From assembly GCF_003334355.1 (NCBI RefSeq), contig NZ_QOWP01000003.1: a stretch of DNA of 64,000 nucleotides. One strand, given 5' to 3'. This stretch comes from Escherichia coli (GTDB lineage Bacteria; Pseudomonadota; Gammaproteobacteria; Enterobacterales; Enterobacteriaceae). Made by a program: the position numbers and the translations under genes. Shown piece by piece: positions 8,353-64,000 of this stretch (its first letter is position 1; each line of letters starts with the position of its first letter). The notes beneath the pieces are model-generated. The model saw nothing but the letters and a program-made list of their open reading frames with translations, was not told the origin of the DNA and searched no databases.

Positions 8353-8621
8353 TTCATCCACAGCTTGTGAATAAAAATAAAAACGCATTGCAATTCAAGA
8401 CGAATAAAATCGTCAAGTGATCGACTCGACAAAACGGAATCTTAATTTTTAACTTATCTATCAATAGGTTAAAAAAATACTATTCACCGTGCGAAGTTTC
8501 TTTGAAATTAAGATTACAGCCTGAGGCTGTGGATAACTCTGTTTACAAGAGTTTGTCAGAGACAACAAAAACCAGCAATAACGCATCGCGTCGCTGTGGA
8601 TATTTTATTGAGAGAAGAATT

Positions 8622-8697
<76 letters not shown>

Positions 8698-8854
8698 TTA
8701 ATCTTCGTCTTTCGAACCGCTACTGCCTTGGCTGCCTTCACTCACCTTAGTCACATACTTTTGTAAGTTCCCAAGGATTCGTTCAGTTGCCGCCTTGTCG
8801 CAATTCGAAATACTGCGATTGGGTGGTCTGTGCTTTGCAGCACTTTTCAAATTT

Positions 8855-8930
<76 letters not shown>

Positions 8931-9140
8931 GTACTATTTAATTTTGCTTTCGTAATTTTCGCATTTCTGCGTCGTTACGGGAGGCGCATTATACGAGAAA
9001 TCTTTCCCTCTGCAACCCCCCAAAAAAGTTTTTTTTGCGTTTTTATCTCAAGTGCTGAAATTATCAGCAAGACGTTCAATTTAGCGTCAAAATCACGCCG
9101 CCGCAAGTGGATTCCGGCGCTTACGTGACCAGGAAAAATT

Positions 9141-10929: not shown

Positions 10930-11898
10930 TTGTTAAATTCATTTAAACTTTCGCTACAGTACATTCTGCCGAAACTATGGCTTACTCGCCTGGCGGGTTG
11001 GGGCGCAAGCAAGCGGGCAGGATGGCTGACAAAACTGGTTATCGATCTGTTCGTTAAATACTACAAGGTCGACATGAAAGAGGCGCAAAAGCCGGACACC
11101 GCCAGCTACCGCACCTTTAACGAATTCTTTGTCCGTCCGCTGCGTGACGAAGTACGCCCAATTGATACCGATCCGAATGTACTGGTCATGCCTGCCGATG
11201 GCGTTATCAGCCAGTTGGGTAAAATCGAAGAAGATAAAATCCTGCAAGCCAAAGGCCACAACTACAGCCTCGAAGCCCTGCTGGCAGGCAACTATCTGAT
11301 GGCGGACCTGTTCCGCAACGGTACGTTTGTGACCACTTACCTCTCCCCGCGTGACTACCACCGCGTACACATGCCGTGCAACGGTATTCTGCGTGAGATG
11401 ATCTACGTGCCGGGCGATCTCTTCTCCGTTAACCATCTCACGGCTCAGAACGTGCCGAATCTGTTTGCCCGTAACGAACGCGTGATTTGCCTTTTCGATA
11501 CCGAATTTGGCCCAATGGCGCAGATTCTGGTCGGAGCGACGATTGTTGGCAGCATTGAGACGGTCTGGGCGGGCACCATTACGCCGCCGCGCGAAGGTAT
11601 CATCAAGCGCTGGACCTGGCCTGCCGGGGAAAACGACGGTTCTGTGGCACTGCTGAAAGGCCAGGAAATGGGTCGCTTTAAACTCGGTTCCACCGTTATC
11701 AACCTGTTTGCACCGGGTAAAGTGAATCTGGTTGAGCAACTGGAAAGCCTGTCTGTCACGAAAATTGGCCAGCCGCTGGCAGTATCTACCGAAACCTTTG
11801 TTACGCCAGACGCTGAACCTGCCCCGCTTCCTGCTGAAGAGATCGAAGCAGAACACGACGCCAGCCCATTGGTTGACGACAAAAAAGACCAGGTCTAA
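10930..11898 (+). CDS. psd: Phosphatidylserine decarboxylase proenzyme Psd, TTG start
   Basis: ORF track 322 aa [25 protein letters not shown]...; ends with LGST self-cleavage motif region ([11 protein letters not shown]). Confidence 0.93.
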
Positions 11899-17451: not shown

Positions 17452-17669
17452 GAAACCATCCTTCATTTCAGCGCGTGTATAACACGTGCCCACTGAACTG
17501 CACTGCGCAACATTGAGCAGGCAGCGTAAAAACCAATACAGAATTGATACCTGGATGATATCAAATATCCAGTCTTAAATTGTGGCCTTTAACGGAAAAA
17601 TGAAAACATATGCTACAGAATGGCGCTTATCACGCCATTCTTCGCTGTTAATTCAGTAATTTTTCAGAA

Positions 17670-18647
17670 TTATGCCCGGTCAACGCTAAAGGCGATGACT
17701 TCAGCCAGTGTCTCCGCGCCCAGCGCCAACATCACCAGACGATCAACACCTAATGCCACGCCGGAACAGTCAGGCATACCGACTTTCAAGGCTTCAATCA
17801 GATTCTGGTCAATGGGGTGCTGCGGCAAACCGCGCGCCGCGCGCTTACGGTTATCTTGTTCAAAGCGTTGTTGCTGCTCACGGGCATCCGTCAATTCATG
17901 GAAACCATTCGCCAGCTCAATACCTTTATAATAAACCTCAAAGCGTTCAGCGACCCGATGATCTTCGGTACTGATTTGCGCCAGTGATGCCTGGCTGGCT
18001 GGAAAGTGGTACACAAAGGTCGGTTTTTCTTTGCCAATATTTGGCTCTACGCCAAAGGTAAACAGCAATTGTAGCAGCGTGTCGCGGTCTTCTTCGGTAT
18101 CAGCAACATTGCTCAAATCCAGTTTCGCTGCGACTTCCCGCAGTTGCGTTTTGTCGGCAGAGAGCGGGTCAATTTCCAGATAACGCAAGAAAGCTTGTTG
18201 ATAAGAAAGGCTTTCTGCTGCCGGGCAGTCCAGCACCTGTTGTAAGAGATCGTCCACCTCGTTCATCAACCGGTACATATCATAGTGCGGTCGATACCAC
18301 TCCAGCATAGTGAACTCAGGGTTGTGATAACGCCCCATCTCTTCATTACGGAAGCTGCGGCACAGCTGGAATACCGGCCCACAACCGGCAACCAGCAGGC
18401 GTTTCATATGGTATTCCGGGCTGGTCATTAACCAGAGATTCATCCCCTGCGAATGCCCGGGGCCAACGAAACGTGTCTCAAACGGGACCAAATGAATATC
18501 GGTTACCGTCGCCTGGCTCATACAAGGCGTCTCCACCTCCAGCACTCCACGATCGGCAAAGAAACGACGGATCTCCGCCATAATCGCCGCGCGTTTTAAT
18601 AAGTTAGGAATGGATGCGCTCGGCTGCCAGGATGCCGTTTCGCTCAT
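17670..18647 (-). CDS. epmA: EF-P lysine34 beta-lysyl ligase EpmA (PoxA/GenX), 325 aa
   Basis: ORF track 340 aa; start trimmed to [30 protein letters not shown]; class II aaRS catalytic core motifs. Confidence 0.92.
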
Positions 18648-24979: not shown

Positions 24980-25030
24980 CTCTGACCTGAATAAGTGATG
25001 GTGCAGCCTGCAGGCCGCACCACAACCGCA

Positions 25031-25597
25031 TTACTTCACGCGAGAGACGTATTCACCAGAGCGGGTATCCACTTTGATGACTTCGCCGATTTGTACGAAC
25101 AGCGGAACCTTAACCACAGCGCCAGTAGACAGGGTAGCCGGTTTGCCGCCAGTACCTGCGGTATCACCTTTCAGGCCCGGATCGGTATCAACGATTTCCA
25201 GTTCAACGAAGTTCGGCGGAGTAACGGAGATCGGCTGACCATTCCACAGAGTTACGATACACTCTGCCTGATCCAGCAGCCATTTAGCGTTATCGCCAAT
25301 TGCTTTTGCATCAGCAGACAGCTGCTCGAAAGTTTCGTTGTTCATGAAGTGCCAGAACTCACCGTCGTTGTACAGGTAAGTCAGGTTCATATCGACAACA
25401 TCAGCGCCTTCAGCGGAATCAGTAGATTTGAAGGTTTTTTCTACGCGAGTACCGGTCAGCAGACGACGCAGTTTAACGCGAGCAAATGCCTGGCCTTTAC
25501 CCGGTTTTACGAATTCACTCGCTTCAACCGCGTAAGGTTCGCCGTCTAACATGATTTTAAGACCAGCACGAAAATCGTTGCTATAGTACGTTGCCAT
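25031..25597 (-). CDS. efp: Translation elongation factor P
   Basis: ORF track 188 aa [46 protein letters not shown] (Lys34 in KPGKG loop). Confidence 0.97.
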
Positions 25598-25638
25598 AAG
25601 GCCCTCTGAAATTTGTTAATTGGTAGCTAAGCCACAAA

Positions 25639-26667
25639 ATGGCGCATATTGTAACCCTAAATACCCCATCCAGAGAAGATTGGTTAACGCAACTTGCCGA
25701 TGTTGTGACCGATCCTGATGAACTTCTGCGTCTTTTGAATATAGACGCGGACGAAAAACTGTTGGCCGGACGCAGCGCCAAAAAGCTGTTTGCCCTGCGT
25801 GTGCCCCGCTCATTTATCGATCGCATGGAGAAAGGCAATCCGGACGATCCTCTTTTGCGTCAGGTACTTACCTCGCAAGATGAGTTTGTCGTCGCGTCCG
25901 GATTCTCCACCGACCCACTGGAAGAACAGCACAGCGTAGTGCCTGGTTTGTTGCATAAATACCACAACCGGGCGCTTTTGCTGGTCAAAGGCGGCTGCGC
26001 GGTAAATTGCCGCTATTGCTTCCGTCGCCACTTCCCCTATGCCGAAAATCAGGGCAACAAGCGTAACTGGCAGACTGCACTTGAGTATGTTGCTGCGCAT
26101 CCGGAACTGGACGAGATGATTTTCTCTGGCGGCGATCCGCTGATGGCGAAAGATCACGAGCTGGACTGGTTGCTCACACAACTGGAAGCCATCCCGCATA
26201 TCAAACGTCTGCGGATTCACAGCCGTCTGCCGATTGTGATCCCGGCACGCATCACAGATGCGCTGGTTGAACGCTTTTCACATTCTACGCTGCAAATCTT
26301 GCTGGTGAATCACATCAACCATGCCAATGAGATAGATGAAACATTCCGTCAGGCGATGGCTAAGTTGCGCCGGGTAGGCGTTACTTTGCTGAACCAGAGC
26401 GTTCTGTTACGTGATGTGAACGATAACGCACAAACGCTGGCAAACCTGAGTAATGCGTTGTTCGATGCCGGCGTGATGCCGTATTACCTGCATGTGCTCG
26501 ATAAAGTACAGGGCGCGGCGCATTTTATGGTGAGTGATGACGAAGCACGGCAGATTATGCGTGAGTTGCTGACATTGGTGTCGGGATATCTGGTGCCGAA
26601 ACTGGCGCGAGAAATTGGCGGCGAACCCAGCAAAACGCCGCTGGATCTCCAGCTACGCCAGCAGTAA
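25639..26667 (+). CDS. epmB: EF-P lysine 2,3-aminomutase EpmB (YjeK)
   Basis: ORF track 342 aa; radical-SAM CxxxCxxC motif (CAVNCRYCFRRH); divergent from efp with only 41 bp between them. Confidence 0.95.
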   Translation: MAHIVTLNTPSREDWLTQLADVVTDPDELLRLLNIDADEKLLAGRSAKKLFALRVPRSFIDRMEKGNPDDPLLRQVLTSQDEFVVASGFSTDPLEEQHSVVPGLLHKYHNRALLLVKGGCAVNCRYCFRRHFPYAENQGNKRNWQTALEYVAAHPELDEMIFSGGDPLMAKDHELDWLLTQLEAIPHIKRLRIHSRLPIVIPARITDALVERFSHSTLQILLVNHINHANEIDETFRQAMAKLRRVGVTLLNQSVLLRDVNDNAQTLANLSNALFDAGVMPYYLHVLDKVQGAAHFMVSDDEARQIMRELLTLVSGYLVPKLAREIGGEPSKTPLDLQLRQQ

Positions 26668-26698
26668 CTGATTAAACAGGGAAGTTAAACATTAAAAT

Positions 26699-26800
<102 letters not shown>

Positions 26801-27061
26801 GAGCAACAAACGCAAGTACCGCAACCTGTCATTAAACTGAGAAATTTAATCTTTGCCCGTTGCATAACCTTTAATTATTCATATGCATTGCTGTTGTTAC
26901 TTTTTATATAGCTAACACCAATAATTAACCTTTCTTTTCTGTTTATATAGAGTGAGCACGGCTATTTATGTTATTTTAACAACTATTACTACCAAGCCCA
27001 TTTATCTGGCTTATAAATTAAAATTAATTATTTAATTGAGAAATGGTTAGGGAGAACCTAC

Positions 27062-27931: not shown

Positions 27932-28000
27932 TCTCATCTTTGCTAATGCGAGGCTGGAGCCATCCAGCCTGAAATGACTGATAACGTGATCGTTGGTCAT

Positions 28001-28100
<100 letters not shown>

Positions 28101-28133
28101 ATAATACGTTTGTCACCCAGCCTCTGGATCACA

Positions 28134-34458: not shown

Positions 34459-34522
34459 TTGTGAGCAGTAACTTAAAAATAACAATCTAATATCAACTTG
34501 TTAAAAAACAAGGAAGGCTAAT

Positions 34523-37987: not shown

Positions 37988-38563
37988 GTGCAACGTGAAG
38001 ATGTACTGGGAGAAGCCCTGAAATTATTAGAATTACAAGGGATTGCCAACACCACGCTGGAGATGGTTGCTGAACGTGTGGATTATCCACTGGACGAGCT
38101 ACGCCGCTTCTGGCCAGACAAAGAGGCAATCCTCTACGATGCGCTGCGTTATCTTAGCCAACAGATAGATGTCTGGCGTCGTCAGCTGATGCTGGACGAA
38201 ACGCAAACCGCCGAACAAAAGCTGCTGGCACGTTATCAGGCGTTATCGGAGTGCGTTAAAAACAACCGCTATCCGGGCTGTCTATTTATCGCTGCCTGTA
38301 CGTTTTATCCCGATCCTGGCCACCCTATTCATCAACTGGCCGATCAGCAAAAAAGCGCGGCCTACGATTTCACCCACGAACTGTTAACCACACTGGAAGT
38401 TGACGATCCGGCGATGGTAGCAAAGCAGATGGAACTGGTGCTGGAAGGCTGTTTAAGCCGAATGCTGGTGAATCGTAGCCAGGCGGATGTCGACACTGCA
38501 CATCGGCTGGCGGAAGATATCCTGCGCTTCGCCCGCTGCCGCCAGGGTGGTGCATTGACCTGA
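37988..38563 (+). CDS. yjdC: Putative TetR-family transcriptional regulator YjdC, 191 aa, GTG start
   Basis: ORF track 37964-38563; product from GTG at 37988 reads (M)[30 protein letters not shown] (HTH). Confidence 0.82.
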
Positions 38564-38669
38564 CAGAAACACAGAAAAGAAGCGATTTGCCGCAATCTTA
38601 AGCAGTTGAATCGCTTTTACTGAAATTAGGTTGACGAGATGTGCAGATTACGGTTTAATGCGCCCCGTT

Positions 38670-38745
38670 GCCCGGATAGCTCAGTCGGTAGAGCAGGGGA
38701 TTGAAAATCCCCGTGTCCTTGGTTCGATTCCGAGTCCGGGCACCA
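38670..38745 (+). tRNA. pheU: tRNA-Phe (anticodon GAA)
   Basis: GCCCGGATAGCTCAGTCGGTAGAGCAGGGGATTGAAAATCCCCGTGTCCTTGGTTCGATTCCGAGTCCGGGCACCA, 76 nt with cloverleaf and CCA end. Confidence 0.95.
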
Positions 38746-38755
38746 AATTCATATA

Positions 38756-38786
38756 AACGGACCTCCACGGAGGTCCGTTTTTCGTT
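38756..38786 (+). terminator. pheU intrinsic terminator
   Basis: GGACCTCC-ac-GGAGGTCC hairpin followed by GTTTTTCGTTT, 10 nt after the tRNA. Confidence 0.8.
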
Positions 38787-39361
38787 TCAGGACGCCACGA
38801 TTTAAGCGTTCTGCCTCCAAATCAATTCTACCGAACTCAACCAGATTCTCCCCACATCACCAGCAATTTGCGGGCATATCCCAATTCGGGAAAATTTGTT
38901 CCTGAGCTATAGCACTAACTGACGTGAAATGTCGTGCGGCCCCGTGATGCTGTTGAACGTCAAATGACGTCATCAGGAGCGTAACGCATCCATAAAGCAC
39001 AACACCGGTCTGAACGGCGACTGATGAGATTTTCTGAATGAGAACAAAGAGAAATGTATCAGTTCGCTTGCTCATGCAAAGACTAACAATCCATTAAAAT
39101 AGTAAGTGCTCCGGACAATTTTCCATGGATTATTTTCTGAACATTTTTCTTTGGCAAAGATGATGAATTTTGATGGTAAGGAATATTACTTCTGGTTCTC
39201 AGTAAAATCCTTTCGTAATACTATGTAATCAAGAAGTTTATGGCTGGTAAAAATAACGTCTTGCATTCACCAATAATATGTAAATAAACCCATCTATAGA
39301 TGGTAAAAATAGGTTGTGGCAATTATCATTGCATCATTCCCTTTTCGAATGAGTTTCTATT

Positions 39362-40900
39362 ATGCAACAACCTGTAGTTCGCGTTGGCGAATGGCTTGTT
39401 ACTCCGTCCATAAACCAAATTAGCCGCAATGGGCGTCAACTTACCCTTGAGCCGAGATTAATCGATCTTCTGGTTTTCTTTGCTCAACACAGTGGCGAAG
39501 TACTTAGCAGGGATGAACTTATCGATAATGTCTGGAAGAGAAGTATTGTCACCAATCACGTTGTGACGCAGAGTATCTCAGAACTACGTAAGTCATTAAA
39601 AGATAATGATGAAGATAGTCCTGTCTATATCGCTACTGTACCAAAGCGCGGCTATAAATTAATGGTGCCGGTTATCTGGTACAGCGAAGAAGAGGGAGAG
39701 AAAATAATGCTATCTTCGCCTCCCCCTATACCAGAGGCGGTTCCTGCCACAGATTCTCCCTCCCACAGTCTTAACATTCAAAACACCGCAACGCCACCTG
39801 AACAATCCCCAGTTAAAAGCAAACGATTCACTACCTTTTGGGTATGGTTTTTTTTCCTGTTGTCGTTAGGTATCTGTGTAGCACTGGTAGCGTTTTCAAG
39901 TCTTGATACACGTCTTCCTATGAGCAAATCGCGTATTTTGCTCAATCCACGCGATATTGACATTAATATGGTAAATAAAAGTTGTAACAGCTGGAGTTCC
40001 CCGTATCAGCTCTCTTACGCGATAGGCGTGGGTGATTTGGTGGCGACATCACTTAACACCTTCTCCACCTTTATGGTGCATGACAAAATCAACTACAACA
40101 TTGATGAACCGAGCAGTTCCGGTAAAACATTATCTATTGCGTTTGTTAATCAGCGCCAATACCGTGCTCAACAATGCTTTATGTCGATAAAATTGGTAGA
40201 CAATGCAGATGGTTCAACCATGCTGGATAAACGTTATGTCATCACTAACGGTAATCAGCTGGCGATTCAAAATGATTTACTGGAGAGTTTATCAAAAGCG
40301 TTAAACCAACCGTGGCCACAACGAATGCAGGAGACGCTCCAGAAAATTTTGCCGCATCGTGGTGCGTTATTAACTAATTTTTATCAGGCACATGATTATT
40401 TACTGCATGGCGATGATAAATCATTGAACCGTGCCAGTGAATTATTAGGTGAGATTGTTCAATCATCCCCAGAATTTACCTACGCGAGAGCAGAAAAAGC
40501 ATTAGTTGATATCGTGCGCCATTCTCAACATCCTTTAGATGAAAAACAATTAGCAGCACTGAACACAGAAATAGATAACATTGTTACACTGCCGGAATTG
40601 AACAACCTGTCCATTATATATCAAATAAAAGCGGTCAGTGCTCTGGTAAAAGGTAAAACAGATGAGTCTTACCAGGCGATAAATACTGGCATTGATCTTG
40701 AAATGTCCTGGCTAAATTATGTGTTGCTTGGCAAGGTTTATGAAATGAAGGGGATGAACCGGGAAGCAGCTGATGCATATCTCACCGCCTTTAATTTACG
40801 CCCAGGGGCAAACACCCTTTACTGGATTGAAAATGGTATATTCCAGACTTCTGTTCCTTATGTTGTACCTTATCTCGACAAATTTCTTGCTTCAGAATAA
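39362..40900 (+). CDS. cadC: Membrane-integrated pH/lysine-responsive transcriptional activator CadC
   Basis: ORF track 512 aa MQQPVVRVGEWLVTPSINQISRNGRQLTLEPRLIDLLVFF (winged-helix), single TM, PPPIP motif at codons 120-124. Confidence 0.95.
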   Translation: MQQPVVRVGEWLVTPSINQISRNGRQLTLEPRLIDLLVFFAQHSGEVLSRDELIDNVWKRSIVTNHVVTQSISELRKSLKDNDEDSPVYIATVPKRGYKLMVPVIWYSEEEGEKIMLSSPPPIPEAVPATDSPSHSLNIQNTATPPEQSPVKSKRFTTFWVWFFFLLSLGICVALVAFSSLDTRLPMSKSRILLNPRDIDINMVNKSCNSWSSPYQLSYAIGVGDLVATSLNTFSTFMVHDKINYNIDEPSSSGKTLSIAFVNQRQYRAQQCFMSIKLVDNADGSTMLDKRYVITNGNQLAIQNDLLESLSKALNQPWPQRMQETLQKILPHRGALLTNFYQAHDYLLHGDDKSLNRASELLGEIVQSSPEFTYARAEKALVDIVRHSQHPLDEKQLAALNTEIDNIVTLPELNNLSIIYQIKAVSALVKGKTDESYQAINTGIDLEMSWLNYVLLGKVYEMKGMNREAADAYLTAFNLRPGANTLYWIENGIFQTSVPYVVPYLDKFLASE

Positions 40901-41264
40901 GTAACTCCGGGTTGATTTATGCTCGGAAATATTTGTTGTTGAGTTTTTGTATGTTCCTGTTGGTATAATATGTTGCGGCAATTTATTTGCCGCATAATTT
41001 TTATTACATAAATTTAACCAGAGAATGTCACGCAATCCATTGTAAACATTAAATGTTTATCTTTTCATGATATCAACTTGCGATCCTGATGTGTTAATAA
41101 AAAACCTCAAGTTCTCACTTACAGAAACTTTTGTGTTATTTCACCTAATCTTTAGGATTAATCCTTTTTTCGTGAGTAATCTTATCGCCAGTTTGGTCTG
41201 GTCAGGAAATAGTTATACATCATGACCCGGACTCCAAATTCAAAAATGAAATTAGGAGAAGAGC
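40901..41264 (+). promoter_or_regulatory. cadBA promoter region (Pcad), AT-rich; expected to hold the CadC and H-NS binding sites
   Basis: 364-bp AT-rich intergenic region upstream of cadB; exact site positions not resolved by eye. Confidence 0.5.
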
Positions 41265-42599
41265 ATGAGTTCTGCCAAGAAGATCGGGCTATTTGCCTGT
41301 ACCGGTGTTGTTGCCGGTAATATGATGGGGAGCGGTATTGCATTATTACCTGCGAACCTAGCAAGTATCGGTGGTATTGCTATCTGGGGTTGGATTATCT
41401 CTATTATTGGTGCAATGTCGCTGGCGTATGTATATGCCCGACTGGCAACAAAAAACCCGCAACAAGGTGGCCCAATTGCTTATGCCGGAGAAATTTCCCC
41501 TGCATTTGGTTTTCAGACAGGTGTTCTTTATTACCATGCTAACTGGATTGGTAACCTGGCGATTGGTATTACCGCTGTATCTTATCTTTCCACCTTCTTC
41601 CCAGTATTAAATGATCCTGTTCCGGCGGGTATCGCCTGTATTGCTATCGTCTGGGTATTTACCTTTGTAAATATGCTCGGCGGTACTTGGGTAAGCCGTT
41701 TAACCACTATTGGTCTGGTGCTGGTTCTTATTCCTGTGGTGATGACTGCTATTGTTGGCTGGCATTGGTTTGATGCGGCAACTTATGCAGCTAACTGGAA
41801 TACTGCGGATACCACTGATGGTCATGCGATCATTAAAAGTATTCTGCTCTGCCTGTGGGCCTTCGTGGGTGTTGAATCCGCAGCTGTAAGTACTGGTATG
41901 GTTAAAAACCCGAAACGTACCGTTCCGCTGGCAACCATGCTGGGTACTGGTTTAGCAGGTATTGTTTACATCGCTGCGACTCAGGTGCTTTCCGGTATGT
42001 ATCCGTCTTCTGTAATGGCGGCTTCCGGTGCTCCGTTTGCAATCAGTGCTTCAACTATCCTCGGTAACTGGGCTGCGCCGCTGGTTTCTGCATTCACCGC
42101 CTTTGCGTGCCTGACTTCTCTGGGCTCCTGGATGATGTTGGTAGGCCAGGCAGGTGTACGTGCCGCTAACGACGGTAACTTCCCGAAAGTTTATGGTGAA
42201 GTCGACAGCAACGGTATTCCGAAAAAAGGTCTGCTGCTGGCTGCAGTGAAAATGACTGCCCTGATGATCCTTATCACTCTGATGAACTCTGCCGGTGGTA
42301 AAGCATCTGACCTGTTCGGTGAACTGACCGGTATCGCAGTACTGCTGACTATGCTGCCGTATTTCTACTCTTGCGTTGACCTGATTCGTTTTGAAGGCGT
42401 TAACATCCGCAACTTTGTCAGCCTGATCTGCTCTGTACTGGGTTGCGTGTTCTGCTTCATCGCGCTGATGGGCGCAAGCTCCTTCGAGCTGGCAGGTACC
42501 TTCATCGTCAGCCTGATTATCCTGATGTTCTACGCTCGCAAAATGCACGAGCGCCAGAGCCACTCAATGGATAACCACACCGCGTCTAACGCACATTAA
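41265..42599 (+). CDS. cadB: Lysine:cadaverine antiporter CadB
   Basis: ORF track 444 aa MSSAKKIGLFACTGVVAGNMMGSGIALLPANLASIGG... Confidence 0.95.
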   Translation: MSSAKKIGLFACTGVVAGNMMGSGIALLPANLASIGGIAIWGWIISIIGAMSLAYVYARLATKNPQQGGPIAYAGEISPAFGFQTGVLYYHANWIGNLAIGITAVSYLSTFFPVLNDPVPAGIACIAIVWVFTFVNMLGGTWVSRLTTIGLVLVLIPVVMTAIVGWHWFDAATYAANWNTADTTDGHAIIKSILLCLWAFVGVESAAVSTGMVKNPKRTVPLATMLGTGLAGIVYIAATQVLSGMYPSSVMAASGAPFAISASTILGNWAAPLVSAFTAFACLTSLGSWMMLVGQAGVRAANDGNFPKVYGEVDSNGIPKKGLLLAAVKMTALMILITLMNSAGGKASDLFGELTGIAVLLTMLPYFYSCVDLIRFEGVNIRNFVSLICSVLGCVFCFIALMGASSFELAGTFIVSLIILMFYARKMHERQSHSMDNHTASNAH

Positions 42600-42616
42600 T
42601 TAAAAGTATTTTCCGA

Positions 42617-42662
42617 GGCTCCTCCTTTCATTTTGTCCCATGTGTTGGGAGGGGCCTTTTTT
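42617..42662 (+). other. Intercistronic hairpin with U tract between cadB and cadA
   Basis: GGCUCCUCC...GGAGGGGCC stem (one G-U pair) followed by UUUUUU, ending 17 nt before the cadA start codon. Confidence 0.4.
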
Positions 42663-42678
42663 ACCTGGAGATATGACT

Positions 42679-44826
42679 ATGAACGTTATTGCAATATTGA
42701 ATCACATGGGGGTTTATTTTAAAGAAGAACCCATCCGTGAACTTCATCGCGCGCTTGAACGTCTGAACTTCCAGATTGTTTACCCGAACGACCGTGACGA
42801 CTTATTAAAACTGATCGAAAACAATGCGCGTCTGTGCGGCGTTATTTTTGACTGGGATAAATATAATCTCGAGCTGTGCGAAGAAATTAGCAAAATGAAC
42901 GAGAACCTGCCGTTGTACGCGTTCGCTAATACGTATTCCACTCTCGATGTAAGCCTGAATGACCTGCGTTTACAGATTAGCTTCTTTGAATATGCGCTGG
43001 GTGCTGCTGAAGATATTGCTAATAAGATCAAGCAGACCACTGACGAATATATCAACACTATTCTGCCTCCGCTGACTAAAGCACTGTTTAAATATGTTCG
43101 TGAAGGTAAATATACTTTCTGTACTCCTGGTCACATGGGCGGTACTGCATTCCAGAAAAGCCCGGTAGGTAGCCTGTTCTATGATTTCTTTGGTCCGAAT
43201 ACCATGAAATCTGATATTTCCATTTCAGTATCTGAACTGGGTTCTCTGCTGGATCACAGTGGTCCACACAAAGAAGCAGAACAGTATATCGCTCGCGTCT
43301 TTAACGCAGACCGCAGCTACATGGTGACCAACGGTACTTCCACTGCGAACAAAATTGTTGGTATGTACTCTGCTCCAGCAGGCAGCACCATTCTGATTGA
43401 CCGTAACTGCCACAAATCGCTGACCCACCTGATGATGATGAGCGATGTTACGCCAATCTATTTCCGCCCGACCCGTAACGCTTACGGTATTCTTGGTGGT
43501 ATCCCACAGAGTGAATTCCAGCACGCTACCATTGCTAAGCGCGTGAAAGAAACACCAAACGCAACCTGGCCGGTACATGCTGTAATTACCAACTCTACCT
43601 ATGATGGTCTGCTGTACAACACCGACTTCATCAAGAAAACACTGGATGTGAAATCCATCCACTTTGACTCCGCGTGGGTGCCTTACACCAACTTCTCACC
43701 GATTTACGAAGGTAAATGCGGTATGAGCGGTGGCCGTGTAGAAGGGAAAGTGATTTACGAAACCCAGTCCACTCACAAACTGCTGGCGGCGTTCTCTCAG
43801 GCTTCCATGATCCACGTTAAAGGTGACGTAAACGAAGAAACCTTTAACGAAGCCTACATGATGCACACCACCACTTCTCCGCACTACGGTATCGTGGCGT
43901 CCACTGAAACCGCTGCGGCGATGATGAAAGGCAATGCAGGTAAGCGTCTGATCAACGGTTCCATTGAACGTGCGATCAAATTCCGTAAAGAGATCAAACG
44001 TCTGAGAACGGAATCTGATGGCTGGTTCTTTGATGTATGGCAGCCGGATCATATCGATACGACTGAATGCTGGCCGCTGCGTTCTGACAGCACCTGGCAC
44101 GGCTTCAAAAACATCGATAACGAGCACATGTATCTTGACCCGATCAAAGTCACCCTGCTGACTCCGGGGATGGAAAAAGACGGCACCATGAGCGACTTTG
44201 GTATTCCGGCCAGCATCGTGGCGAAATACCTCGACGAACATGGCATCGTTGTTGAGAAAACCGGTCCGTATAACCTGCTGTTCCTGTTCAGCATCGGTAT
44301 CGATAAGACCAAAGCACTGAGCCTGCTGCGTGCTCTGACTGACTTTAAACGTGCGTTCGACCTGAACCTGCGTGTGAAAAACATGCTGCCGTCTCTGTAT
44401 CGTGAAGATCCTGAATTCTATGAAAACATGCGTATTCAGGAACTGGCTCAGAATATCCACAAACTGATTGTTCACCACAATCTGCCGGATCTGATGTATC
44501 GCGCATTTGAAGTGCTGCCGACGATGGTAATGACTCCGTATGCTGCATTCCAGAAAGAGCTGCACGGTATGACCGAAGAAGTTTACCTCGACGAAATGGT
44601 AGGTCGTATTAACGCCAATATGATCCTTCCGTACCCGCCGGGAGTTCCTCTGGTAATGCCGGGTGAAATGATCACCGAAGAAAGCCGTCCGGTTCTGGAG
44701 TTCCTGCAGATGCTGTGTGAAATCGGCGCTCACTATCCGGGCTTTGAAACCGATATTCACGGTGCATACCGTCAGGCTGATGGCCGCTATACCGTTAAGG
44801 TATTGAAAGAAGAAAGCAAAAAATAA
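42679..44826 (+). CDS. cadA: Inducible lysine decarboxylase CadA, 715 aa
   Basis: ORF track 42640-44826 trimmed to MNVIAILNHMGVYFKEEPIRELHRALERLNF; PLP-lysine motif region STHKLL. Confidence 0.97.
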   Translation: MNVIAILNHMGVYFKEEPIRELHRALERLNFQIVYPNDRDDLLKLIENNARLCGVIFDWDKYNLELCEEISKMNENLPLYAFANTYSTLDVSLNDLRLQISFFEYALGAAEDIANKIKQTTDEYINTILPPLTKALFKYVREGKYTFCTPGHMGGTAFQKSPVGSLFYDFFGPNTMKSDISISVSELGSLLDHSGPHKEAEQYIARVFNADRSYMVTNGTSTANKIVGMYSAPAGSTILIDRNCHKSLTHLMMMSDVTPIYFRPTRNAYGILGGIPQSEFQHATIAKRVKETPNATWPVHAVITNSTYDGLLYNTDFIKKTLDVKSIHFDSAWVPYTNFSPIYEGKCGMSGGRVEGKVIYETQSTHKLLAAFSQASMIHVKGDVNEETFNEAYMMHTTTSPHYGIVASTETAAAMMKGNAGKRLINGSIERAIKFRKEIKRLRTESDGWFFDVWQPDHIDTTECWPLRSDSTWHGFKNIDNEHMYLDPIKVTLLTPGMEKDGTMSDFGIPASIVAKYLDEHGIVVEKTGPYNLLFLFSIGIDKTKALSLLRALTDFKRAFDLNLRVKNMLPSLYREDPEFYENMRIQELAQNIHKLIVHHNLPDLMYRAFEVLPTMVMTPYAAFQKELHGMTEEVYLDEMVGRINANMILPYPPGVPLVMPGEMITEESRPVLEFLQMLCEIGAHYPGFETDIHGAYRQADGRYTVKVLKEESKK

Positions 44827-44837
44827 TTAGCTCGTAC

Positions 44838-44868
44838 AAGGGAAGTGGCTTGCCACTTCCCTTTTTTG
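44838..44868 (+). terminator. cadBA operon intrinsic terminator
   Basis: AAGGGAAGTGG-cttg-CCACTTCCCTT hairpin followed by TTTTTG, 12 nt after cadA stop. Confidence 0.85.
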
Positions 44869-44884
44869 CTCATAAGGAGAACAC

Positions 44885-46342
44885 ATGAAAACACCCTCAC
44901 AGCCGCGCGCGATATACTATATCGTGGCGATCCAAATCTGGGAGTACTTCAGTTTTTACGGCATGCGTGCCTTACTCATTCTCTATCTCACCCATCAGCT
45001 TGGTTTTGATGATAACCATGCCATCAGCCTGTTCAGCGCATATGCTTCTCTGGTTTACGTTACCCCTATTCTCGGCGGCTGGCTTGCCGACCGCCTGCTC
45101 GGCAACCGCACTGCAGTGATTGCCGGCGCGCTGTTAATGACCCTTGGCCATGTGGTGCTGGGTATTGATACAAATTCAACCTTTAGCCTGTATCTGGCGC
45201 TGGCAATCATTATTTGTGGCTACGGTTTATTCAAATCAAACATCAGCTGTTTGCTTGGCGAGCTCTACGACGAGAACGATCATCGACGTGATGGCGGTTT
45301 TTCGCTGCTGTATGCTGCGGGCAATATCGGTTCTATCGCAGCCCCAATCGCCTGCGGCCTGGCTGCTCAGTGGTATGGATGGCATGTTGGCTTTGCCCTT
45401 GCGGGTGGCGGCATGTTTATCGGTTTGTTGATTTTCTTAAGCGGTCATCGTCATTTCCAGTCCACACGTAGTATGGATAAAAAAGCGCTCACTAGTGTCA
45501 AATTTGCCTTACCAGTATGGAGCTGGTTAGTGGTGATGCTCTGTTTAGCCCCAGTATTTTTTACTCTGCTGCTGGAGAACGACTGGTCCGGATATTTGCT
45601 GGCGATCGTTTGCCTCATTGCCGCACAAATCATTGCCCGCATGATGTTCAAATTCCCCGAACATCGCCGTGCTCTTTGGCAAATTGTATTGTTGATGTTT
45701 GTCGGGACATTGTTCTGGGTACTGGCACAACAGGGCGGCAGTACCATCAGCTTGTTTATCGATCGCTTTGTGAATCGTCAGGCATTCAATATTGAAGTAC
45801 CTACAGCACTATTCCAGTCGGTGAATGCAATTGCGGTGATGCTCGCTGGGGTTGTACTGGCCTGGCTGGCGTCGCCAGAAAGCCGCGGCAACTCAACATT
45901 GCGCGTCTGGCTGAAGTTTGCCTTTGGCTTACTGCTGATGGCTTGTGGCTTTATGTTGTTGGCATTTGATGCCCGACATGCAGCGGCTGACGGTCAAGCG
46001 TCAATGGGCGTGATGATATCCGGGCTGGCGCTAATGGGCTTTGCCGAACTCTTTATTGACCCGGTGGCGATTGCGCAAATCACGCGTCTGAAAATGTCTG
46101 GCGTATTAACCGGGATTTATATGCTGGCAACAGGCGCGGTCGCCAACTGGCTGGCAGGCGTCGTGGCACAGCAGACGACAGAGTCGCAAATTAGCGGTAT
46201 GGCAATTGCAGCTTACCAGCGATTCTTTTCTCAGATGGGAGAGTGGACGTTGGCTTGTGTCGCGATCATCGTCGTATTGGCCTTTGCTACCCGTTTTCTG
46301 TTTAGCACGCCGACGAATATGATACAGGAGAGCAACGATTAA
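44885..46342 (+). CDS. dtpC: Dipeptide/tripeptide:H+ symporter DtpC (YjdL), POT family
   Basis: ORF track 485 aa [36 protein letters not shown] (POT signature). Confidence 0.93.
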
Positions 46343-46578
46343 CTGTCGTAAAAACAATTGGTTATGAATAAATTAACTTTCAGTTTATAACACTAACAAA
46401 TCGAGATTAATAAGTCATTTAAACCATTTTGATGGTTATTTATTAGTGATATCAACTTGAGGTAAGCGTTAGTTTCGATAAGATAAACTGAGTTACTAAT
46501 AGTCGAGGCAGATAATACAGTGTACCGATCTGTCTCTTTATCTACGCTAAATTGAAAGCTGGATTTAGAGGAACCAAA

Positions 46579-48096
46579 ATGTCTGAACAAGAAACACGGG
46601 GAGCCAATGAGGCTATTGATTTTAACGATGAACTGAGAAATCGCCGCGAAAAACTGGCGGCACTACGTCAGCAAGGTGTGGCGTTTCCCAATGATTTTCG
46701 CCGCGACCATACCTCTGACCAGTTGCACGAAGAGTTTGATGCGAAGGATAACCAGGAACTGGAATCCTTAAACATTGAAGTCTCGGTTGCTGGCCGAATG
46801 ATGACCCGTCGTATCATGGGGAAAGCCTCCTTTGTAACGTTGCAGGATGTCGGTGGCCGTATTCAACTGTACGTTGCAAGAGATAGCCTGCCAGAAGGTG
46901 TTTATAACGATCAGTTTAAAAAATGGGATCTGGGTGACATTATCGGTGCCCGCGGTACGCTGTTTAAGACGCAAACGGGTGAGCTTTCCATTCACTGTAC
47001 TGAGTTGCGCCTGCTGACAAAAGCACTACGTCCTTTACCAGATAAATTCCATGGTCTGCAGGATCAGGAAGTCCGTTATCGTCAACGTTATCTGGACCTC
47101 ATCGCTAACGATAAATCCCGTCAAACGTTTGTTGTCCGTTCAAAAATTCTGGCCGCTATCCGTCAGTTCATGGTCGCGCGCGGCTTTATGGAAGTAGAAA
47201 CCCCGATGATGCAGGTAATTCCAGGTGGGGCATCTGCTCGCCCATTTATTACCCATCATAATGCTCTGGATTTAGATATGTATCTGCGTATCGCGCCGGA
47301 GCTGTATCTGAAACGTCTGGTTGTAGGCGGTTTTGAACGGGTATTCGAAATCAACCGTAACTTCCGTAATGAAGGTATTTCTGTTCGCCATAATCCTGAG
47401 TTCACAATGATGGAACTCTACATGGCGTATGCGGATTACCACGATTTGATTGAACTGACAGAGTCACTGTTCCGCACCCTGGCACAAGAGGTTCTGGGTA
47501 CCACTAAAGTCACTTATGGCGAGCATGTGTTTGATTTCGGCAAACCGTTTGAAAAACTCACCATGCGCGAAGCAATCAAAAAATATCGTCCAGAAACCGA
47601 TATGGCCGACCTGGATAATTTTGATGCTGCTAAAGCATTAGCTGAATCTATCGGAATTACGGTAGAGAAAAGCTGGGGGCTGGGACGTATTGTCACGGAG
47701 ATCTTTGATGAAGTGGCAGAAGCACATCTGATTCAGCCAACCTTTATTACGGAATATCCGGCAGAAGTGTCCCCGCTGGCGCGCCGTAATGATGTTAACC
47801 CGGAAATCACCGACCGTTTTGAATTCTTCATCGGTGGTCGTGAAATCGGTAATGGTTTTAGCGAATTAAACGACGCAGAAGATCAGGCTGAACGTTTCCA
47901 GGAACAGGTTAACGCTAAAGCTGCAGGTGACGACGAAGCCATGTTCTATGACGAAGATTACGTGACTGCGCTGGAATATGGTCTGCCGCCAACCGCTGGT
48001 CTGGGTATTGGCATCGACCGAATGATTATGCTGTTTACAAACAGTCATACTATTCGTGACGTTATTCTCTTCCCGGCGATGCGCCCACAGAAATAA
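46579..48096 (+). CDS. lysU: Lysine--tRNA ligase, inducible form LysU, 505 aa
   Basis: ORF track 46552-48096 trimmed to [33 protein letters not shown]; assigned lysU rather than lysS by genomic context next to cadA/dtpC. Confidence 0.93.
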
Positions 48097-49638: not shown

Positions 49639-51270
49639 ATGAGACATTCATTGCCCTACCGCATGTTACGCAAACGTCCGATGAAATTGAGTACCACAGT
49701 GATCTTAATGGTCAGCGCGGTACTGTTCTCGGTGCTATTGGTGGTGCATCTGATTTACTTCTCGCAAATCAGTGATATGACGCGAGACGGGCTGGCCAAC
49801 AAGGCACTGGCAGTGGCGCGTACCCTCGCCGACTCGCCGGAAATCCGTCAGGGCTTGCAGAAAAAACCGCAGGAGAGTGGAATCCAGGCCATCGCGGAAG
49901 CCGTGCGCAAACGCAACGATCTGCTGTTTATTGTCGTTACCGATATGCAAAGTCTTCGCTATTCGCATCCTGAAGCCCAGCGTATTGGTCAGCCATTTAA
50001 AGGTGATGACATCCTTAAAGCGCTGAATGGCGAAGAAAATGTCGCTATCAATCGCGGTTTTCTGGCGCAGGCTTTACGCGTATTTACCCCCATCTACGAT
50101 GAAAATCATAAACAAATTGGCGTGGTGGCGATCGGCCTTGAGTTAAGCCGCGTGACCCAACAGATCAATGACAGTCGCTGGAGCATTATCTGGTCAGTAT
50201 TATTTGGCATGCTGGTCGGACTGATTGGCACCTGCATTCTGGTTAAAGTACTGAAAAAAATCCTTTTCGGCCTGGAACCCTACGAAATCTCCACGCTGTT
50301 TGAGCAACGCCAGGCCATGTTGCAGTCTATCAAAGAAGGCGTCGTTGCCGTGGACGATCGCGGCGAGGTCACGCTGATCAACGATGCCGCACAAGAATTG
50401 CTGAATTACCGTAAGTCGCAGGACGATGAGAAACTGTCGACGCTAAGCCACTCGTGGTCACAGGTGGTAGATGTCTCGGAAGTGTTACGCGACGGTACCC
50501 CGCGCCGCGACGAAGAGATTACGATTAAAGATCGGCTATTACTGATCAACACCGTTCCGGTGCGCAGTAATGGCGTTATCATCGGTGCCATTTCAACCTT
50601 CAGGGACAAAACTGAAGTACGTAAACTGATGCAGCGACTCGACGGTCTGGTCAACTATGCTGATGCACTTCGTGAACGATCCCACGAATTTATGAATAAA
50701 TTGCATGTGATTCTCGGATTATTGCATCTGAAGAGTTATAAGCAGTTGGAAGATTACATTCTCAAAACAGCCAATAACTATCAGGAAGAGATTGGCTCTC
50801 TGCTGGGTAAGATCAAATCTCCGGTTATCGCTGGTTTTTTAATCAGCAAGATTAATCGCGCGACCGATTTAGGCCATACGCTGATTTTAAACAGTGAAAG
50901 CCAGCTGCCAGACAGCGGCAGTGAGGACCAGGTCGCGACGCTGATTACCACATTGGGAAATCTGATAGAAAACGCGCTGGAAGCATTAGGGCCGGAACCC
51001 GGTGGCGAAATTAGCGTAACATTGCACTACCGTCACGGCTGGCTGCACTGCGAAGTTAACGATGATGGACCGGGGATCGCACCCGACAAAATCGATCACA
51101 TTTTTGACAAAGGTGTCTCGACAAAAGGAAGCGAGCGAGGCGTCGGTTTAGCACTTGTCAAACAACAGGTAGAAAATCTCGGCGGCAGCATCGCCGTGGA
51201 ATCGGAACCCGGGATTTTCACACAATTTTTTGTCCAGATACCCTGGGACGGGGAGAGGTCGAACAGATGA
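49639..51270 (+). CDS. dcuS: C4-dicarboxylate sensor histidine kinase DcuS
   Basis: ORF track 543 aa; two TM helices, periplasmic PAS-like domain, C-terminal HATPase (GLALVKQQVENLGGSI). Confidence 0.95.
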   Translation: MRHSLPYRMLRKRPMKLSTTVILMVSAVLFSVLLVVHLIYFSQISDMTRDGLANKALAVARTLADSPEIRQGLQKKPQESGIQAIAEAVRKRNDLLFIVVTDMQSLRYSHPEAQRIGQPFKGDDILKALNGEENVAINRGFLAQALRVFTPIYDENHKQIGVVAIGLELSRVTQQINDSRWSIIWSVLFGMLVGLIGTCILVKVLKKILFGLEPYEISTLFEQRQAMLQSIKEGVVAVDDRGEVTLINDAAQELLNYRKSQDDEKLSTLSHSWSQVVDVSEVLRDGTPRRDEEITIKDRLLLINTVPVRSNGVIIGAISTFRDKTEVRKLMQRLDGLVNYADALRERSHEFMNKLHVILGLLHLKSYKQLEDYILKTANNYQEEIGSLLGKIKSPVIAGFLISKINRATDLGHTLILNSESQLPDSGSEDQVATLITTLGNLIENALEALGPEPGGEISVTLHYRHGWLHCEVNDDGPGIAPDKIDHIFDKGVSTKGSERGVGLALVKQQVENLGGSIAVESEPGIFTQFFVQIPWDGERSNR

Positions 51271-63372: not shown

Positions 63373-64000
63373 ATGAGGATTTGCAGCGACCAACCTTGTA
63401 TTGTTTTATTGACTGAAAAAGATGTCTGGATAAGGGTGAATGGGAAAGAACCTATTAGCCTTAAAGCTAACCATATGGCGTTATTAAATTGTGAAAATAA
63501 TATTATCGACGTCTCCTCTCTTAACAACACTTTGGTTGCTCATATTAGTCACGACATCATCAAAGATTACCTCCGGTTTCTGAATAAAGATCTCTCGCAA
63601 ATACCAGTATGGCAACGTAGCGCTACGCCCATACTCACCCTGCCATGCCTGACGCCAGACGTCTTTCGCGTTGCCGCGCAACACAGCATGATGCCCGCAG
63701 AAACTGAGTCAGAAAAGGAACGAACACGCGCATTATTATTCACGGTGCTATCCCGTTTTCTCGACAGTAAAAAATTCGTTTCATTAATGATGTATATGTT
63801 ACGTAATTGTGTAAGTGACAGCGTTTATCAAATTATTGAAAGCGATATTCACAAAGACTGGAATCTTAGTATGGTAGCCAGTTGTTTATGTCTTAGCCCA
63901 AGTCTGTTAAAGAAAAAGTTGAAAAGCGAAAACACCAGTTATAGCCAAATAATCACCACCTGCCGCATGCGTTATGCCGTAAATGAATTAATGATGGACG
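63373..64000 (+). CDS. adiY: AraC-family regulator AdiY, N-terminal 209 codons (3' end beyond window)
   Basis: Own translation from ATG at 63373: MRICSDQPCIVLLTEKDVWIRVNGKEPISLKANHMALLNCENNIID...; open to the window end; not in ORF track. Confidence 0.85.
   Translation, partial: MRICSDQPCIVLLTEKDVWIRVNGKEPISLKANHMALLNCENNIIDVSSLNNTLVAHISHDIIKDYLRFLNKDLSQIPVWQRSATPILTLPCLTPDVFRVAAQHSMMPAETESEKERTRALLFTVLSRFLDSKKFVSLMMYMLRNCVSDSVYQIIESDIHKDWNLSMVASCLCLSPSLLKKKLKSENTSYSQIITTCRMRYAVNELMMD

Follow-up and report, generated by a model that had tools for sequence, protein, structure and literature searches.

In a 64,000-nt stretch of Escherichia coli DNA (hereafter the window; the MG1655 coordinate equals 4,401,296 minus the window coordinate), the 13-mer TGATATCAACTTG is found upstream of both cadB and lysU, raising the question of whether these genes share a regulatory element or whether the match is fortuitous. 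A pattern search of the window returned two exact copies only, both on the plus strand (table 1); their 3′ ends precede the cadB ATG by 184 nt and the lysU ATG by 119 nt. This agrees with the initial annotation in the existence, positions, and orientation of the repeat, the distances given there being 185 and 120 nt. The window is E. coli chromosome, and the 10 kb compared (38000–48000) matched strain PSS-12 at 100% identity.

The premise that cadB and lysU are both inducible by acid and anaerobiosis agrees with the literature. CadC is a membrane-anchored activator that counters H-NS silencing and turns on cadBA at low pH in the presence of lysine, and heat, anaerobiosis, and low pH all induce lysU. 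Cadaverine inhibits LysU less than it does LysS, and LysU has been reported to be the cadaverine-tolerant LysRS. CadC, at 3–5 molecules per cell, is regarded as having a single target; CadC clusters were nevertheless seen in ∼19% of cells without the cadBA operator, which the authors ascribed to nonspecific binding or to ompF. Some membrane activators of the ToxR family have multiple targets, for example V. cholerae ToxR at ompU, ompT, and toxT. Silencing of the lysU promoter has reportedly been assigned to Lrp (Lin 1992) and to H-NS (Ito 1994). Lrp sits on the lysU promoter and represses the gene strongly (for Lrp, Gazeau 1992 as cited in a later paper).

The genes cadC, cadB, cadA, dtpC, and lysU follow one another in this order on the plus strand. 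Among 54 orthologous loci retrieved with DtpC as the query and then mapped for genes, the cadC-cadB-cadA-dtpC order is kept in the Enterobacteriaceae genera recovered and also in Serratia; a lysU after dtpC is confined to Escherichia, Klebsiella, Raoultella, Buttiauxella, one “Enterobacter” strain, and Pseudescherichia. In Pseudescherichia and relatives (L028, L029, and L032; ∼11461–11488), lysU starts ∼27 nt after dtpC, and no spacer, prfB relic match (see below), or motif precedes it; because the gap is this short and spacer-free, the two genes are probably cotranscribed there. Within ∼25 kb of cadCBA-lysU, the window also holds epmA (17669–18646), efp and epmB (25030–26666), adiA (60781–63048), and adiY (63373–64000, clipped by the window end). 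CadC translation depends on EF-P and on the enzymes that lysylate it, among them the LysRS paralogue EpmA; adiA and adiY are arginine acid-resistance genes.

Table 1. Features of the cadB and lysU upstream regions (window coordinates), with identity to E. coli over 17 enterobacterial genus representatives for segments of the cadB promoter
Feature	Position	Strand	Description
12/13 copy TAATATCAACTTG	34488–34500	+	aspA-dcuA spacer, 23 nt before dcuA ATG
cadC	39362–40900	+	Gene
Cad1 41-mer of PcadBA, TTGTAAACATTAAATGTTTATCTTTTCATGATATCAACTTG	41040–41080	+	Window letters identical to published oligo
17-mer quasi-palindrome	41043–41059	+	Part of Cad1 41-mer
cadB-upstream 13-mer	41068–41080	+	Published oligo Cad1C, 3′ third of CadC-binding site Cad1
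40 nt further upstream			44% identity, 17 genera
Cad1A			52% identity, 17 genera
Cad1B			86% identity, 17 genera
Cad1C (13-mer)			82% identity, 17 genera
TAATCT, −10 candidate of cadBA	41177–41182	+	Conserved
cadBA transcription start (approximate)	41187–41193	+	Back-calculated from published numbering
cadB	41265–42599	+	Coding sequence
dtpC	44885–46342	+	Gene
lysU-upstream stretch aligning with Cad1 41-mer	46419–46459	+	33/44 identities gapped, 23/28 ungapped
lysU-upstream 13-mer	46447–46459	+	Exact copy; last 3 bases begin −35-like TTGAGG
Candidate lysU promoter TTGAGG-16-TAAGAT	46457–46484	+	Sequence reading; TTGAGG 46457–46462, TAAGAT 46479–46484; −35 overlaps last 3 nt of 13-mer
Decayed prfB (RF2) 3′-end relic	46468–46578	+	nhmmer, tblastn, and DNA alignment; starts 8 nt downstream of 13-mer
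GATAAT, alternative lysU −10 candidate	46511–46516	+	Sequence reading
lysU	46579–48096	+	Coding sequence

The cadB copy is a known and already published part of the CadC operator Cad1. The Cad1 41-mer is numbered −153 to −113 of PcadBA, and its Cad1C oligo reads 5′-TGATATCAACTTG-3′ (Schlundt et al. 2017, PMC5430869), so that the comparison with known CadC sites proposed in the initial annotation gives a letter-for-letter match and experimentally defined CadC-binding DNA includes the 13-mer. When the CadC DNA-binding domain was assayed in vitro, its binding to Cad1C was weaker and more dynamic than to the AT-rich fragments Cad1A and Cad1B (PMC5430869). The 13-mer lies at approximately −125 to −107 from the mapped cadBA start, which is itself only approximate because two published numbering statements differ by 6 nt.

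Conservation across the Enterobacteriaceae, also proposed as a check, is evident for this copy. Most genera carry TGATATCAAC[A/T]TG in their cadB promoters at a constant ∼182 nt from the start codon, the first three positions of the 13-mer (T1, G2, and A3) are invariant across 17 genera, and the element sits inside a strongly conserved block, TGTTTATCTTTTnATGATATCAACnTGTCATCCTGAT. Given this conserved position and identity, the cadB copy is a functional, conserved portion of the known operator region. Across genera (window 41040–41110; cadB promoters of L006–L053), the conserved CadC region consists of Cad1B, Cad1C, and the next ∼25 nt, at 69–86% identity. Since Cad1A is poorly conserved, the comparison suggests that the determinants of recognition in vivo differ from the quasi-palindromic Cad1A half emphasized in vitro.

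Three further observations concern cadC-cadB spacers. The centre of the Cad1 17-mer (ATTAAATGTT, 41049–41058) equals 10 contiguous bases of the ArcA consensus GTTAATTAAATGTTA and could possibly be relevant to the anaerobic induction of cadBA. In Buttiauxella, the cadB promoter contains a second Cad1B-like match (TGTTTATCTTATTATGG..., 13.8 bits; L006:6089–6115), located 76 nt upstream of its main site. A TTGAGT-19-TATAAT at 40939–40969, upstream of Cad1, appears as a “constitutive” RpoD promoter in a genomic SELEX list (PMC3946193).

The initial annotation had offered a shared promoter element or a shared regulator site as the explanation of the repeat. The second part holds for cadB, where the copy is part of the CadC operator, and the first does not: a common extended −10 element of the form TGnTATCAA seems to us very improbable. 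Its TG is correctly spaced before TATCAA in both copies, but TATCAA lacks the near-invariant final T (position 6), and a promoter scan listed no plus-strand promoter using it. The cadB copy is not a −10 because it lies more than 100 bp upstream of the cadBA start, and the orthologous lysU elements of other genera (TGAGATCAG or TGAAATCAG) are not −10-like. The same scan yielded no convincing candidate for the lysU transcription start.

How far the repeat exceeds chance depends on how the comparison is framed. As such, a repeated 13-mer is ordinary, because the window has 66 maximal direct exact repeats of at least 13 nt. When tests were confined to the 42 annotated intergenic regions of the window, an exact 13-mer was common to 6 pairs of regions, against 0.78 expected from shuffles; 3 of these were of REP type, and the cadB/lysU pair was accompanied by 2 other non-REP pairs, one of which also involves the lysU spacer. 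For cadB/lysU in fixed orientation, an exact 13-mer was attained in 2/1000 shuffles, and the local alignment of the two spacers (score 20, 33/44 identities) was attained in 1/2000. It was the top non-REP pair among 1722 intergenic comparisons, scoring 20 versus 17 for the next. The probability of a chance match for this pair specifically is ∼2e-4 to 2e-3. The earlier judgment that a chance 13-mer is unlikely is thus correct for a prespecified pair (∼0.002) but overstated in general, as roughly half of such windows are expected to hold some intergenic pair of this kind.

The similarity between the two spacers stops at the 3′ edge of the 13-mer. With two exact copies in the window and only cadB-type and lysU-type sites in ∼1.15 Mb of fetched enterobacterial DNA, the element does not behave as a dispersed repeat (REP, IS, or mobile element). 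Rfam covariance models run over both spacers and a Klebsiella lysU leader returned nothing better than E ∼0.5, and no hit overlapped either copy. REP/BIME-like repeats (e.g., ATGCCGGATGCGGCGT) at 26667–27060, 27932–28133, and 56374–56511 gave the top similarity scores among intergenic pairs, and a 78-nt exact direct repeat (8620–8697 and 8853–8930) corresponds to tandem tRNA-Gly genes. The lysU spacer shares another exact 13-mer, TTATGAATAAATT (46362–46374), with the interior of dcuS (50690–50702) and an inverted one with the tRNA-Gly/orn spacer (8930–9139), which illustrate chance matches in AT-rich DNA.

A 12/13 copy before dcuA is probably also due to chance, since its flanks are unrelated to Cad1; the Cad1 profile described below found no match of at least 8 bits there. 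This copy overlaps an inverted repeat, CTTGTT-N5-AACAAG, and fits the IHF consensus (TATCAACTTGTTA), unlike the cadB and lysU copies.

The main alternative to chance is that Escherichia acquired, in the lysU copy, a weak second operator for CadC through which lysU is co-induced with cadBA, a reading that we regard as rather unlikely. It was evaluated with a position weight matrix (PWM) of 27 columns, spanning Cad1B and Cad1C and built from non-Escherichia cadB promoters only. In the window, the true Cad1 scores 41.3 bits, the lysU site is second with 14.1 bits, and the next match has 6.4 bits. Over the whole scan (55 loci plus the window; ∼1.09 Mb, 2.18 million positions), all matches of at least 8.6 bits fall in cadC-cadB spacers or in Escherichia lysU spacers, the next one elsewhere (8.4 bits) being inside a cadC gene. 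The lysU site is the best non-cadB match in this DNA, occurs in all five Escherichia lineages, and reaches a score attained by dinucleotide shuffles of the lysU spacer in 4/20000. Analytically, 1–9 sites with a lysU-level score are expected per E. coli genome. Most authentic Cad1 sites score 28–41 bits and the most divergent 10–20.

The composition of the lysU score tells against a second operator. The 13-mer contributes +20.4 bits and the Cad1B-like flank −6.3 bits, so the T-rich 5′ flank similarity pointed out in the initial annotation (9/14 by our count) does not hold up against the Cad1 profile. A 45-column profile extended downstream gives −9.5 bits at lysU. With a negative flank and a negative extended score, only the 13-mer is common to the two sites and the wider resemblance is not real in profile terms. 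Searches of the lysU spacer revealed no Cad2-like second site, no similarity downstream of the 13-mer, and no head-to-head TTAxxxxT pair, the matches to this low-information motif being on the same strand only. The best matches in the lysU spacers of Klebsiella, Raoultella, and Buttiauxella range from −14 to +1.5 bits, and the Cad1-like form is Escherichia-only rather than present wherever lysU follows the cad operon.

Within Escherichia, the lysU element is conserved at 12–13 of 13 positions in five lineages, in all of them 119 nt before the ATG. Identity at 13/13 is limited to E. coli and its closest clades: the exact lysU 13-mer is found in E. coli, E1V33, and MOD1-EC7003, and a further Escherichia lineage has TGATATCGACTTG. 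The two copies do not co-vary in the sister species compared, with TGATATCAGCTTG at lysU and TGATATCTACTTG at cadB in E. albertii, and the exact TGATATCAACTTG at lysU and TGATATCAACCTT at cadB in MOD1-EC7003. The corresponding lysU motifs are TGAGATCAGCTTG in K. pneumoniae, TGAAATCAGCCGG in K. oxytoca, TGATATCAGCCTT in Raoultella, and TGATATCAGACTG in Buttiauxella; these genera share a homologous element, TGA[G/T/A]ATCAGC[C/T]nn, within an inverted repeat, GCTGA-N6-TCAGC. Judged from these alignments, the lysU core TGAnATCAGCYTG predates Escherichia and would have been present in the common ancestor of the lysU-bearing genera. This older element matches the cadB motif of its own genus at 8–11 of 13 positions only, which by calculation is the chance level between two ∼300-nt spacers. 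The lysU spacer has a G+C content of 0.31 in E. coli and 31–33% across Escherichia versus 0.41–0.53 elsewhere, and it was through G/C to A/T transitions that the identity became complete.

The lysU leader has an origin of its own. Translated in their reading frames, the spacers of Klebsiella and Raoultella showed the C-terminal part of RF2 immediately ahead of lysU. With prfB-lysS of MG1655 as the comparison sequence, an HMM of the leader matched prfB in nhmmer at E=1.5e-24 and window 46434–46583 at E=1e-6, tblastn with RF2 gave matches down to E=2e-11 (Raoultella), and DNA alignment agrees with a prfB 3′-end relic. Approximately 30 RF2 codons are recognizable in Raoultella and only ∼9 in E. 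coli; the relic lies at L008:11724–11825, L012:11766–11867, and L053:11735–11807 in relatives. A second nhmmer match, between the leader and the prfB 5′ region (E = 0.001), conflicts with a colinear 3′ relic. By homology, then, the lysU leader is the decayed 3′ end of prfB, including a lysS-type Shine-Dalgarno context, so lysU arose by duplication of a prfB′-lysS segment inserted after dtpC. A derivation of the 13-mer itself from the RF2 codons Ser-Asp-Ile-Gly-Trp, attractive in view of the 8-nt distance to the relic, found no support, local alignment upstream of codon L82 being at null level and anchored extension not significant (p = 0.09–0.8).

In genera other than Escherichia, the lysU leader is rich in G+C and contains several blocks of high conservation (L053:11603–11812, L049:11650–11855, L012:11620–11872, L006:11523–11742, and related loci): AGGAGGAGGATATTCTGG, the GCTGA-N6-TCAGC hairpin with one compensatory change, a second hairpin with three CG-to-UA compensatory changes, and a long-range GCCAGG/CCTGG pairing. 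The hairpin over the motif is lost in Escherichia. This may be an undescribed structured cis-regulatory leader, one without an Rfam match. A small conserved ORF in the Klebsiella-group leader was considered and rejected because its frames are not conserved. Downstream of the lysU 13-mer in E. coli, by 16 nt, TCGATAAGAT (46475–46484) matches the high-affinity H-NS nucleation motif TCGATAAATT at 8/10 positions and overlaps the TAAGAT −10 candidate.

Taken together, we favor a known CadC operator segment at cadB and a coincidental look-alike at lysU, a combination to which we would give about an even chance. At cadB, the 13-mer is the promoter-distal end of Cad1 and lies over 100 bp ahead of the cadBA start, and CadC acting against H-NS silencing activates cadBA through the conserved block at low pH with lysine; the operator identity and conservation are results of this analysis, and the CadC/H-NS mechanism is taken from the literature. 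At lysU, the copy lies in an AT-rich, Lrp-repressed upstream region at the 5′ edge of the prfB pseudogene relic. The ancestral core would have resembled the cadB motif at only 10–11 of 13 positions, as expected by chance, the Escherichia spacer drifted from ∼50% to 31% G+C, and we infer that one or two G/C to A/T transitions were then enough to make the match exact. Given the chance-level ancestral match and this AT-drift route, the 13/13 match is most likely coincidental and carries no sign of common regulation.

Several facts count against coincidence and favor the second operator instead, in which CadC, while holding the cad locus at the membrane, would also bind 5.4 kb away upstream of lysU and relieve Lrp/H-NS silencing. 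The lysU copy is identical at 13/13 positions to a footprinted, conserved operator segment, has the same orientation, and lies within ∼110 bp upstream of either candidate lysU promoter. The pair-specific probability is low and the pair ranks first among non-REP pairs, and the lysU sites in five lineages are the only PWM matches of at least 8.6 bits away from cadC-cadB spacers. The genes are neighbors induced by the same conditions, with a physiological rationale in a cadaverine-tolerant LysU, and CadC clusters persist in the ∼19% of cells mentioned above. Against this reading, Cad1C is the weakest CadC-binding subfragment in vitro, with Cad1A and Cad1B better; the lysU flank is negative against the conserved Cad1B profile; a Cad2-like partner is lacking; the two sites do not co-vary in sister species; and the lysU leaders of Klebsiella, Raoultella, and Buttiauxella have either no such motif or a different one. 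CadC is also present at only 3–5 molecules per cell, and thirty years of work on lysU have described Lrp and H-NS control with no CadC effect reported. The searchable literature, which treats CadC as single-target, contains no CadC-lysU link and does not describe the lysU copy.

A third reading, that both copies are bound by another common protein (Lrp, H-NS, IHF, or a different factor) at the palindromic core TGATATCA, appears improbable from the motifs compared. The core reads as a perfect palindrome of 8 bp and is found at both loci in several genera, conservation at cadB is far higher for the 13-mer than for Cad1A, the half preferred by CadC in vitro, and Lrp occupies the lysU promoter. 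By eye, however, neither copy has the TTR of the IHF consensus WATCAANNNNTTR (cadB TATCAACTTGCGA, lysU TATCAACTTGAGG); the FNR box TTGATnnnnATCAA is represented by its ATCAA half only, with TTTCA and ATTAG in place of the left half-site; and the Lrp consensus, at 9/15, was likewise rejected. The Klebsiella lysU element is TGAGATCA or TGAAATCA and lies inside a different inverted repeat, GCTGA-N6-TCAGC. We know of no factor with TGATATCA specificity.

The repeat is largely explained, because its only secure element, the cadB copy, is a piece of a published CadC operator. If the lysU copy were functional, CadC would become a two-promoter regulator, the decades-old finding that lysU, like its neighbor cadA, responds to low pH and anaerobiosis would acquire a mechanism, and membrane-bound CadC would have a second natural place of capture in the diffusion-and-capture model. 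Such a site would be a product of the Escherichia lineage, built where the prfB relic ends, and could account for the residual CadC clusters in cells without the cadBA operator. By-products of the analysis are the conserved region formed by Cad1B-Cad1C and a further ∼25 nt, and the recognition of the lysU leader as a decayed prfB 3′ end.

Among known systems, the closest is Cad1 of the E. coli cadBA promoter (Kueper and Jung 2005; Schlundt et al. 2017, PMC5430869), whose Cad1C is the cadB copy; the lysU copy differs in sharing only the Cad1C third, with a negative Cad1B-like flank and no Cad2 partner. Compared with extended −10 promoters (TGnTATAAT), the TG-n-TATCAA spacing is formally the same, but the position is wrong at cadB, the final T is missing, and other genera do not keep the motif as such at lysU. 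The Lrp/H-NS-silenced lysU promoter is a further comparison: its AT-rich upstream region, occupied by Lrp, contains the lysU copy, and the 13-mer itself is a poor match to the Lrp consensus. Relative to the prfB-lysS operon junction, the ∼110 nt before the lysU ATG descend from the prfB 3′ end, and the lysU 13-mer lies 8 nt outside the secure edge of the relic. The multitarget ToxR-family activators provide the remaining comparison. E. coli CadC differs from them in currently being treated as single-target, but if it bound at lysU it would resemble them in using degenerate AT-rich sites at several promoters. A CadC with a second operator 5.4 kb downstream, before lysU, would let acid and lysine stress co-induce LysRS and cadBA, an arrangement that the sequence comparisons leave somewhat unlikely.
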